A stretch of 64,000 nt of DNA from Escherichia phage KookSpook, in sequence record PP925842.1. The stretch is one strand, 5' to 3'. Below, piece after piece: positions 62,746-63,848 of this stretch. The number at the start of each line of letters is the position of its first letter. Positions within the stretch are counted from its first letter, which is position 1. The position numbers were made by a program, and so were the translations under genes. The notes below the pieces were generated by a model, which was not told the origin of the DNA, did no database searches, and saw only the letters and a program-made list of their open reading frames with translations.

Positions 62746-63084
62746 TTGGATGGTGTACTGGCAGAAAACACTATGCAAGAAAATGAGAAGCCCTTTCAGG
62801 AACCTCTGCCACTTGAGATGAGTCCTAAGGCAAAAGCAGTACAGAATGCAATTAACGAAGTTATTCAGGACGTCATACAAGATACTATGGAAGACGTTAT
62901 GGGAACATCATTTATACTAGAAGAATCTGGATTTGATGAAATGATGGATCTTATAGGGACAGTAGTAATGGTTCGTGCAATTGCTAGAATATTCCAAATA
63001 CCACATTTACGGGAGCAAGAAAGACATGTCAAACGGCAACAGAAGAAAGAACAGGCGCGGAGAAGTGTACGAAGCGTGGATTAA
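62746..63084 (+). CDS. Hypothetical acidic protein (112 aa)
   Basis: ORF without a clear RBS; its 3' end overlaps the next small gene. Confidence 0.3.
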   Translation: MDGVLAENTMQENEKPFQEPLPLEMSPKAKAVQNAINEVIQDVIQDTMEDVMGTSFILEESGFDEMMDLIGTVVMVRAIARIFQIPHLREQERHVKRQQKKEQARRSVRSVD

Positions 63085-63160
63085 TATTTATGGATTTGGT
63101 TTTGTACTATTTCTAATCTTCGTAGGTTTTTGGTTAGCGGCTATGGCAGGGTGGATTTAA
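63026..63160 (+). CDS. Small C-terminally anchored membrane protein (44 aa)
   Basis: MSNGNRRKNRRGEV... followed by hydrophobic FGFVLFLIFVGFWLAAMAGWI; its stop overlaps the next start (TAATG). Confidence 0.4.
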   Translation: MSNGNRRKNRRGEVYEAWINIYGFGFVLFLIFVGFWLAAMAGWI

Positions 63161-63315
63161 TGGAATGGGTAATTATTGGCATCTTCATCTTATTGATACT
63201 TCTCTTTGTAGGCTTACGTGTAATAGATAATTCCATAACACAAGTAGAGGTTAAATTAATGCAGTTGAGTAACAGATTATCTAGAATTGAAACTTTATTA
63301 GAGGAACGTAAATAA
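63160..63315 (+). CDS. Small single-pass membrane protein, paralog 1 (51 aa)
   Basis: MEWVIIGIFILLILLFVGL then a coiled-coil tail ...LSRIETLLEERK. Confidence 0.5.
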   Translation: MEWVIIGIFILLILLFVGLRVIDNSITQVEVKLMQLSNRLSRIETLLEERK

Positions 63316-63428
63316 TGGAATGGGTAATTGTTGCACTACTAGGAATTATAATTATCGCACTATGTATTTTAGATAATCATTTAGCTAGGATTGAAACCCT
63401 GTTAGGAGAAAGGAAGTCATGGAAATAA
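63315..63428 (+). CDS. Small single-pass membrane protein, paralog 2 (37 aa)
   Basis: MEWVIVALLGIIIIALCILDNHLARIETLLGERKSWK, sharing MEWVI and RIETLL-ERK with paralog 1. RBS GAGGAACG. Too short for the supplied ORF track. Confidence 0.45.
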   Translation: MEWVIVALLGIIIIALCILDNHLARIETLLGERKSWK

Positions 63429-63610
63429 TTATTGTACTAACAGTAATCTTAGTCTGGGTAGTCTTCATTTCCTCTCGTATTGTATATACTCGTATTAGAA
63501 ATCTAGAGGCTCAAGTGAAGCAACAGCAATTTGCTATAGAAAAACTACTAGAACTACAACGTTGTGATAGTACTCGTATTCTACAAATTGAGAAGGAATT
63601 AGATGTTTAG
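63419..63610 (+). CDS. Small single-pass membrane protein (63 aa)
   Basis: RBS AGGAGAAAGGAAG; N-terminal TM helix MEIIIVLTVILVWVVFI then coiled coil. Confidence 0.55.
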   Translation: MEIIIVLTVILVWVVFISSRIVYTRIRNLEAQVKQQQFAIEKLLELQRCDSTRILQIEKELDV

Positions 63611-63848
63611 TATTATAATCGCCTTTATTATCGGAATACTCGCGGGAGTTTTCGGAACATCTGCGGCAATCAACAAGCATCGTAAGTATATTGCGGAAGT
63701 GACGCGGGAGATTGCGGAAAGAGAGCGGAGATTCTCGGAGAAACGTGCGGAGTTTGAGCGAGAATGGTCGGATGGATCTCGGGCGTCGCGGAGGAGATTT
63801 CGTGAGTTTAAACCTGAACATCGTTTTGATGACCCTTCTATGCGCTAA
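63603..63848 (+). CDS. Small membrane protein with Arg/Glu-rich tail (81 aa)
   Basis: RBS GAGAAGGAA; TM helix then charged tail. Codon usage (GCG, CGG, TCG) differs visibly from the rest of the window. Confidence 0.55.
   Translation: MFSIIIAFIIGILAGVFGTSAAINKHRKYIAEVTREIAERERRFSEKRAEFEREWSDGSRASRRRFREFKPEHRFDDPSMR

Follow-up and report, generated by a model that had tools for sequence, protein, structure and literature searches.

Why does the last small gene before the right terminal repeat of a T5-like phage depend on codons that are rare elsewhere in its genome? The question is raised by a stretch of 64,000 nucleotides (nt) from Escherichia phage KookSpook (record PP925842.1), referred to here as the window, in which five small open reading frames (ORFs), named O1–O5, lie downstream of the lipoprotein gene llp. 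A first-pass annotation of this DNA had reported five consecutive short ORFs of 37–81 amino acids (aa) beside llp, all of which are present as given on the + strand, and had singled out the last of them as a codon-usage outlier. On balance, the account that we favor is that O1–O5 are genuine accessory membrane-protein genes and that the codon usage of O5 stems from a conserved CGG pattern at the nucleotide level, likeliest a cis-acting DNA site. The genes and the pattern are as follows:

63026..63160, + strand: O1, homologue of T5.159, 44 aa (phrog_8596, E 1e-28)
63160..63315, + strand: O2, an extra paralogue of T5.160, 51 aa (phrog_6369, E 8e-13)
63315..63428, + strand: O3, homologue of T5.160, 37 aa, with an N-terminal helix (phrog_6369, E 2e-21)
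63419..63610, + strand: O4, homologue of T5.161, 63 aa (phrog_5851, E 1e-28)
63603..63848, + strand: O5, homologue of T5.162, 81 aa (phrog_6447, E 1e-45)
63632..63791, + strand: phased CGG lattice within O5, 13 CGG with the core KCGGRAG (Rayleigh R 0.92 at 10.5 nt)

A phased CGG lattice in O5

In the long ORFs of the window, GCG accounts for 8% of the alanine codons, CGG for 1% of the arginine codons, and TCG for 4% of the serine codons. O5 employs GCG for 6 of its 8 alanines, CGG for 4 of its 14 arginines, and TCG for 3 of its 7 serines. The anomaly is stronger than the first-pass annotation claimed, since O5 harbors 13 CGG trinucleotides while 20,000 synonymous resamplings, based on its amino-acid sequence and the codon usage of the genome, yield 1.77 +/- 1.2 and never more than 8. 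The bias is restricted to one strand, with 13 CGG and 0 CCG on the + strand. The GC and codon statistics that the annotation had called for, taken over the array against the genome, set O5 apart: its 250-bp segment is the most CpG-rich of the 64 kb and the local GC content is 0.49 vs 0.38 for the window. The CpG counts of O1–O4 are ordinary. O5 otherwise uses GGA, ATA, and TTT like the rest of the genome.

The CGG triplets occupy positions 30, 41, 51, 62, 92, 103, 113, 124, 134, 146, 167, 178, and 187 of the O5 ORF and thus extend over ~160 nt, or ~16 turns of DNA, ending ~100 bp short of the terminal-repeat boundary. Their best period is 10.5 nt (Rayleigh R 0.92, p ~1e-5) and falls between 10.35 and 10.55 in six phages. 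All of them share one orientation and one face of the helix, with A/T-rich triplets phased half a turn away. When all trinucleotides of both strands are scanned for 10.5-nt phasing, no array in the 64 kb scores higher than the lattice; second place goes to an ordinary 21-nt tandem repeat within a structural gene. No further CGG or CCG lattice is found in T5 positions 1–62,000 or elsewhere in the window, and no matching array occurs at the other end of the T5 terminal repeat, where different repeats are present. Signals of RNA structure are only weak (z-scores of −2.1 and −1.8). No description of the lattice was found in the open-access literature searched.

Other compositional features of the window were noted in passing. 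The next most CpG-rich stretches after O5 are 36400-36800 (GC up to 0.51) and 29050-29500. In the structural region, two adjoining 21-nt (7-codon) tandem arrays, one with 3.4 perfect copies, lie at 39217-39417 in genes of the − strand.

Conservation of the lattice and its independence from the encoded protein

The same CGG pattern is carried by T5.162. Across 26–28 distinct sequences, the lattice codons are near-invariant despite being the rarest synonymous choices in the genome. These include GCG at codons 14, 21, 31, 38, and 49, CGG at codons 35, 42, 60, and 63, and TCG at codon 56, as well as ATC at codon 10 and TTC at codon 17, each of which precedes a GG. The other four-fold sites of the gene are split ~50:50 (Mann-Whitney p = 0.006 for sites at least four-fold degenerate). 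Where a lattice amino acid is replaced, the CG is kept, such that threonine and serine alternate as ACG/TCG, alanine and serine as GCG/TCG, and alanine and threonine as GCG/ACG. The lattice arginine codons are CGG and almost never AGG, and it is therefore the whole CGG triplet that is held and not GG alone. In Yersinia phage phiR2-01, which has a diverged tail, CGG is retained at 92, 103, 113, 124, 134, and 145.

An overlapping gene was considered and rejected as the cause of this synonymous constraint, using the ratio of nonsynonymous to synonymous changes (N/S) in codon comparisons with a single difference. A 109-aa antisense ORF at 63534-63863 has an N/S of 3.65. The +1-frame ORF at 63712-63942 lies in a frame with an N/S of 3.77 and many stops in relatives, and the antisense frame that shares the O5 wobble positions is ruled out because it has no start codon.

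A counterpart of the lattice is found in the Klebsiella Sugarland-like phages, whose dmp protein is ~61% identical to that of T5. It comprises 10–12 CGG with R 0.92–0.94 and a best period of 10.5, has the same orientation as the O5 lattice, and lies upstream of the same motif at the repeat boundary. It is embedded in the Ser/Gly/Asp-rich low-complexity part of a protein (151–180 aa) that has zero detectable similarity to O5, while the related phage Eos encodes a homologue of this Klebsiella protein that lacks the lattice. The lattice is thus a nucleotide-level feature that different proteins have accommodated.

The Klebsiella case bears on the proposal that the periodicity is a by-product of the O5 tail, a helix of amphipathic or heptad type derived from a 21-nt tandem duplication, and that no DNA or RNA element exists. 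The codon pattern would then reflect inherited history or selection on translation, for example, rare arginine codons that throttle the synthesis of a toxic membrane protein. Periodicities of 10–11 bp in coding DNA are commonly ascribed to helix amphipathicity, and several features of O5 agree with such an origin: 10.5 nt equals 3.5 codons, a 21-nt tandem repeat of 2.1 copies lies at 63690-63733, the lattice residues of the tail follow an i, i+3/4 pattern, and CGG, AGA, and AGG are rare codons. However, the lattice is not limited to the charged tail but continues through the transmembrane segment (positions 30–62) by way of the synonymous choices ATC and TTC before GG, and in the Klebsiella phages it runs through a nonhelical Ser/Gly-rich segment of an unrelated protein. 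The CGG triplets fall in three reading phases, which does not fit a single rule at the codon level; GCG is not rare in the hosts and yet is the most strictly conserved; and the synonymous sites of the lattice are less variable than other four-fold sites of the same gene in the same sequences. We consider this explanation unlikely.

Possible functions of the lattice

In the mechanism proposed here, the nucleotide-level pattern that overlies the O5 coding sequence, ~13–16 CGG triplets in one orientation and spaced 10–11 nt apart, would present the same motif repeatedly on one helix face, where a multimeric protein could bind along the DNA or wrap it. Candidate binders are the small terminase subunit and other DNA-binding proteins, of phage or host, that act where unique and repeat DNA meet. 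A putative protein-binding DNA site is the most likely function for the lattice, and we assign it tentatively. The small terminase subunit is the obvious candidate, and we are much less sure of the identity of the binder. In T5-like and Sugarland-like phages alike, the ~16 turns of one-sided sites may serve as a cis element at the unique/repeat junction, in concatemer processing, packaging, anchoring, or replication.

Arrays of a similar build are known from other systems. P1 pac comprises hexamer repeats within ~160 bp in the pacA gene, the lambda ori iterons lie inside gene O, plasmid R1 parC has 11-bp iterons, and SPP1 pacL/pacR and lambda cosB are platforms of phased short motifs that bind protein. 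Like these arrays, the lattice consists of many short motifs in one orientation at helical-repeat spacing; it spans ~160 bp within coding sequence, is single-copy as scanned, and lies near a genome-end processing site. It differs in that its core is only 3–7 bp (KCGGRAG), its distance to the cut site is variable, and several related lineages lack it.

The stretch between O5 and the terminal repeat, together with the beginning of the repeat, harbors three further elements:

63847..63866, no strand: perfect 20-bp palindrome AATTTGGAAA/TTTCCAAATT (AATTTGGAAATTTCCAAATT), directly past the O5 stop; imperfect in T5
63862..63889, + strand: conserved boundary motif AAATTTCATAAGATTACACATGGGGGTG (AAATTTCATAAGATTACACATG...), just left of the terminal-repeat boundary
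63949..63987, no strand: hairpin with a 15-bp perfect stem, within 100 nt of the repeat start, flanked by the O5 operon and dmp, which converge

The boundary motif is conserved in T5 and Klebsiella B01 and in part in Pectobacterium DU_PP_V; in T5, a related ATTTGGGA motif also recurs at 10047 and 10128, close to the other edge of the repeat. The boundary motif is probably the true end-cutting region and is a better candidate for the cutting signal than the lattice. This is one of several points that count against the proposed DNA site. The lattice lies ~100 bp from the boundary in the window and in T5, whereas Stitch has ~320 bp between the two and SelmaRatti and IME260 have ~570 bp; this variation disfavors a role in positioning the cut, as do the lineages that have no lattice and the much wider conservation of the separate boundary motif. 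Phages that lack the lattice are Eos, Erwinia KEY, Proteus RP7, Providencia PSTCR5, Pectobacterium DU_PP_V, and Vibrio phages. Their terminal-repeat life style is the same, and the small terminase subunit of DU_PP_V is similar; the lattice is therefore not a universal requirement. Furthermore, the sequences compared are related, so the conservation counts are not independent events, and single CGGs are sometimes lost within the Klebsiella clade. Finally, 3.5 codons is the repeat of an amphipathic helix and the 21-nt duplication reported by Tandem Repeats Finder lies inside the array; some of the O5 periodicity could therefore be protein-driven or historical.

In DU_PP_V, the last 300 nt before the boundary contain CGTGAG/GTGAGT repeats, five of them at spacings of 10, 20, and 61 nt. 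These GTGAG/CGTGAG repeats are only partly phased, and a duplicated unit of ~63–69 nt is also present. They may be a lineage-specific counterpart of the CGG lattice.

The lattice could alternatively act through RNA of the opposite strand, as a Rho loading (rut) site for leftward pre-early transcripts that leave the repeat past dmp. Termination in the O5 antisense region would then shield the llp operon and the late genes from read-through. Rho binds YC dinucleotides ~10–13 nt apart. Antisense RNA from 63680-63800 is rich in C and poor in G, with CC every 10–11 nt (the + strand of the lattice has G 0.35 and C 0.17). All relatives have O5 and dmp in convergent orientation, dmp lying beyond the end of the window, and the lattice orientation is conserved in the Klebsiella phages. 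The locus resembles rut sites in its C-rich, G-poor antisense RNA with pyrimidine-C steps ~10–11 nt apart downstream of a convergent gene. It differs in the conserved CpG and first C of CGG, which Rho does not require: CGG is kept specifically and not just GG, although AGG would provide an equal or better antisense CC-U and is the commoner codon in the genome, and a G in every repeat is unfavorable for a rut site. In addition, because coding strands in this genome are generally G-rich, antisense RNA is C-rich throughout, and dmp is already separated from O5 by a strong, conserved hairpin. A hairpin persists at this place in T5, phiR2-01, and a Klebsiella phage even though the stem sequences differ, which looks like compensatory change, and it is probably a bidirectional terminator. 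A Rho site is accordingly improbable as an explanation of the lattice.

A relation of the lattice to the single-strand nicks of T5 was considered and rejected, as the nick consensus in the T5 record is 5'-N-Pu-pGCGC-N and the lattice motif is KCGGRAG. Outside the lattice, GCGCT at 63842-63846 overlaps the O5 stop and matches the nick consensus (Pu-pGCGC, − strand). The 64 kb contain only 22 such matches; this one, 48 bp away from the repeat boundary, is shared by T5. In a re-annotation (PMC11879866, supplementary file 8), T5.156, the small terminase subunit, is given the name "sciB", which denotes the classical locus required for the single-strand nicks of T5 DNA. If this label is correct, nicking is tied to packaging.

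Of the functions weighed here, a protein-binding DNA site in O5 remains the one we prefer, with the reservations given above.

The five membrane-protein genes

Each of O1–O5 contains one 17-residue window with a mean Kyte-Doolittle hydropathy of 2.5–3.3 and belongs to a PHROG family, in agreement with the first-pass description of one hydrophobic helix per ORF accompanied by a charged or coiled-coil segment. O1 has a basic N-terminus (RRKNRR) and its hydrophobic helix at the C-terminus and looks tail-anchored. In O2–O5, an N-terminal helix is followed by basic residues and then by a charged or coiled-coil tail, which is a short coiled coil in O2, a coiled coil in O4, and Arg/Glu-rich in the lattice-bearing O5. 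These four look N-terminally anchored, with tails predicted to be cytoplasmic by the positive-inside rule. On the basis of the predicted topology, the five products would be very small single-pass inner-membrane proteins. The paralogue pair that had been proposed is O2 and O3 (BLASTP E 1e-7, both phrog_6369). The start/stop coupling by TAATG, ascribed to the whole array, applies to O1/O2 and O2/O3, while O3/O4 and O4/O5 overlap by 10 and 8 nt, respectively.

The genes lie on the llp strand, in the interval from llp to the right terminal repeat, and their families, order, strand, and position match those of T5.159–T5.162, each of which is annotated in the T5 record as "hypothetical protein, contains single transmembrane domain". 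The five genes are thus already annotated and have no assigned function. The two phages differ in that T5 lacks O2, the additional T5.160 paralogue, and has only remnants of an acidic ORF (ORF X) that is full length here. T5.159–T5.162 are named in no main text of the open-access literature searched, where data on them appear only in supplementary tables. O1–O5 are probably cotranscribed with llp.

The N/S of O1–O5 is 0.26–0.76, as opposed to ~3.7–6 in noncoding frames, and the genes are therefore under purifying selection as proteins. O1 has the lowest of these values (0.26) and O3 has 0.31 over 28 distinct sequences, while the O5 frame has the lowest N/S of the six frames and zero stop codons in 28 sequences. 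Among 32 related loci compared for gene content, O1 and O5 are present in all 32, O3 in nearly all, and O2 in 5; O4 is absent from 8. O1, the most widely conserved, is also found in phages Eos and Erwinia KEY. Some relatives have a homing endonuclease insertion or another ORF after O5.

Conservation of the proteins is accompanied by dispensability in the laboratory. In the CRISPRi-ART translational knock-down screen of T5, T5.159–T5.162 all scored "Not Fit", that is, dispensable, while the small terminase subunit scored "Fit" (PMC11879866, supplementary file 16). In phage NBSal003, codon 36 of the O5 homologue is changed from GAG to TAG, which leaves a protein of 35 aa while the rest of the locus is intact and reflects either a dispensable O5 protein or a sequencing error. 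The screen and this natural stop lead us to regard the O1–O5 proteins as accessory. The distant Demerecviridae Providencia PSTCR5, Eos, and Erwinia KEY likewise have series of tiny membrane ORFs in the interval from the receptor-binding gene to the repeat, so that a cluster of small membrane proteins here is a trait of the family. In PSTCR5 and Eos, these are 5–6 tiny (29–50 aa) or larger helix-plus-coiled-coil ORFs without a CGG lattice.

The first-pass annotation interpreted the codon usage of O5 as a sign of foreign origin and listed holin/antiholin-like factors among the candidate functions. Taken together, O5 would be a recent import with GC-rich codons and the five ORFs a set controlling lysis. 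Apart from the elevated local GC content, the single hydrophobic helix with a charged tail would suit this view, as the architecture is common to many holins and antiholins. Foreign origin is wrong, however, because the CGG pattern is conserved at synonymous sites across T5 relatives and is specific to one motif and one strand. There is neither patchy presence nor a general compositional shift; O5 has the same codon pattern in T5 and its relatives, its family comprising ~443 T5-like phage records, and an exhaustive HMMER search among 1.84 billion representatives returned only 5 clusters, all close relatives, and no homologue from outside the group. A holin or antiholin role is unlikely for any of the five, as none matches a holin or antiholin family in Pfam, PHROGs, or NCBIfam, the lysis genes of T5 (endolysin T5.040, holin T5.041, and spanins T5.044/045) lie ~90 kb away, and knock-down of T5.159–162 has no fitness effect. 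The combination of recent import and lysis control is, in our judgment, highly improbable.

With regard to other functions, O1–O5 may act conditionally at the host membrane. They could, for instance, exclude the incoming DNA of related phages at an inner-membrane step and thereby complement Llp, which acts at the outer-membrane receptor. Llp/Cor and the inner-membrane exclusion proteins T4 Imm/Sp and HK97 gp15 are likewise small phage-encoded envelope proteins made early, and the location of O1–O5 directly downstream of llp on the same strand is a likeness in setting to exclusion of the Llp/Cor type. However, O1–O5 have zero sequence similarity to any of these proteins, and the position beside llp is their sole link to exclusion. 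In PHROGs, Pfam, NCBIfam, and PADLOC, they match no known exclusion protein or anything of known function, and only llp matches Cor/Llp (phrog_1119); Pfam and NCBIfam give nothing above threshold, and the defense and anti-defense families of PADLOC give zero matches for the small ORFs. Resemblances of O5 to LapA, FtsL, and ZapG-like proteins and of O4 to PspB are subthreshold and were set aside, as they reflect only the generic build of a membrane helix plus a charged helix. An exclusion or takeover role is possible, and a conditional membrane role such as inner-membrane exclusion alongside Llp is the one we favor, with low confidence.

Layout of the right end of the unique region

The last 5 kb of the window share 82–98% DNA identity and synteny with T5-like phages (Demerecviridae, Tequintavirus), and the window ends where the unique region of such a phage has its right edge. 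The terminase subunits are followed by the receptor-binding protein, llp, the small ORFs, and the right terminal repeat:

58762-60560, − strand: large and small terminase subunits
60571-62346, − strand: Pb5-type receptor-binding protein
62372..62400, + strand: candidate sigma-70 promoter of the llp operon, TTGCTT, 17-nt spacer, TGtTATAAT (extended −10), read from the sequence
62432..62698, + strand: llp/Cor-type receptor-blocking lipoprotein, 88 aa, lipobox LSGC (phrog_1119, E 6e-26; Pfam LPAM_1)
62773..63084, + strand: ORF X, an extra acidic ORF of 103 aa (phrog_16810)
63890..64000, + strand: start of the right terminal repeat, where the T5 repeat annotation aligns

The llp assignment agrees with annotated relatives at the matching position. 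The candidate promoter occupies the place equivalent to a promoter annotated upstream of llp in T5; a simple promoter scan misses it, as its −35 element matches at only 3 of 6 positions. ORF X, a sixth ORF that the first-pass annotation did not include, follows llp and runs for 59 nt into the start of O1, in another frame. Epseptimavirus relatives have it at full length, while T5 and many Tequintaviruses retain short remnants only. No known RNA family matches 62300-64000 at E <= 1.

In T5, MM-1, and Kenya-K15, the annotated right terminal repeat starts 40–55 bp past the O5 homologue, the last small ORF, and base 1 of the Pectobacterium phage DU_PP_V record aligns to window position 63891. The closest public record to 62400-64000 is MG065692.1 (98% identity), named "Campylobacter phage C13". 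Its host label looks doubtful, because all other relatives infect Escherichia, Salmonella, and allies.

Significance

The five genes are ordinary in themselves, being accessory and typical of variable phage genome ends. The worthwhile result is the conserved, helically phased CGG lattice in T5.162 and its counterpart in Klebsiella phages. In the open-access literature searched, no description was found of how the junction between unique DNA and the 10-kb terminal repeats of T5-like phages is recognized or processed; a lattice that lies beside this junction and has no second copy in the scanned sequence provides a concrete and cheaply testable candidate. The presence of the lattice also calls for caution in recoding or deleting the "non-essential" T5.162 when T5-like therapeutic phages are engineered.

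More generally, the lattice is a clean example of a nucleotide signal that constrains a protein, which matters wherever selection or horizontal transfer is inferred from codon usage. If the proposed DNA site is real, the T5.162 tail, rich in Arg and Glu, and the Ser/Gly-rich stretch in the Klebsiella protein would largely be by-products encoded by a DNA signal, and the locus would represent a clear natural case of dual coding, in which the 10.5-bp helical repeat of DNA is mapped onto 3.5 codons.

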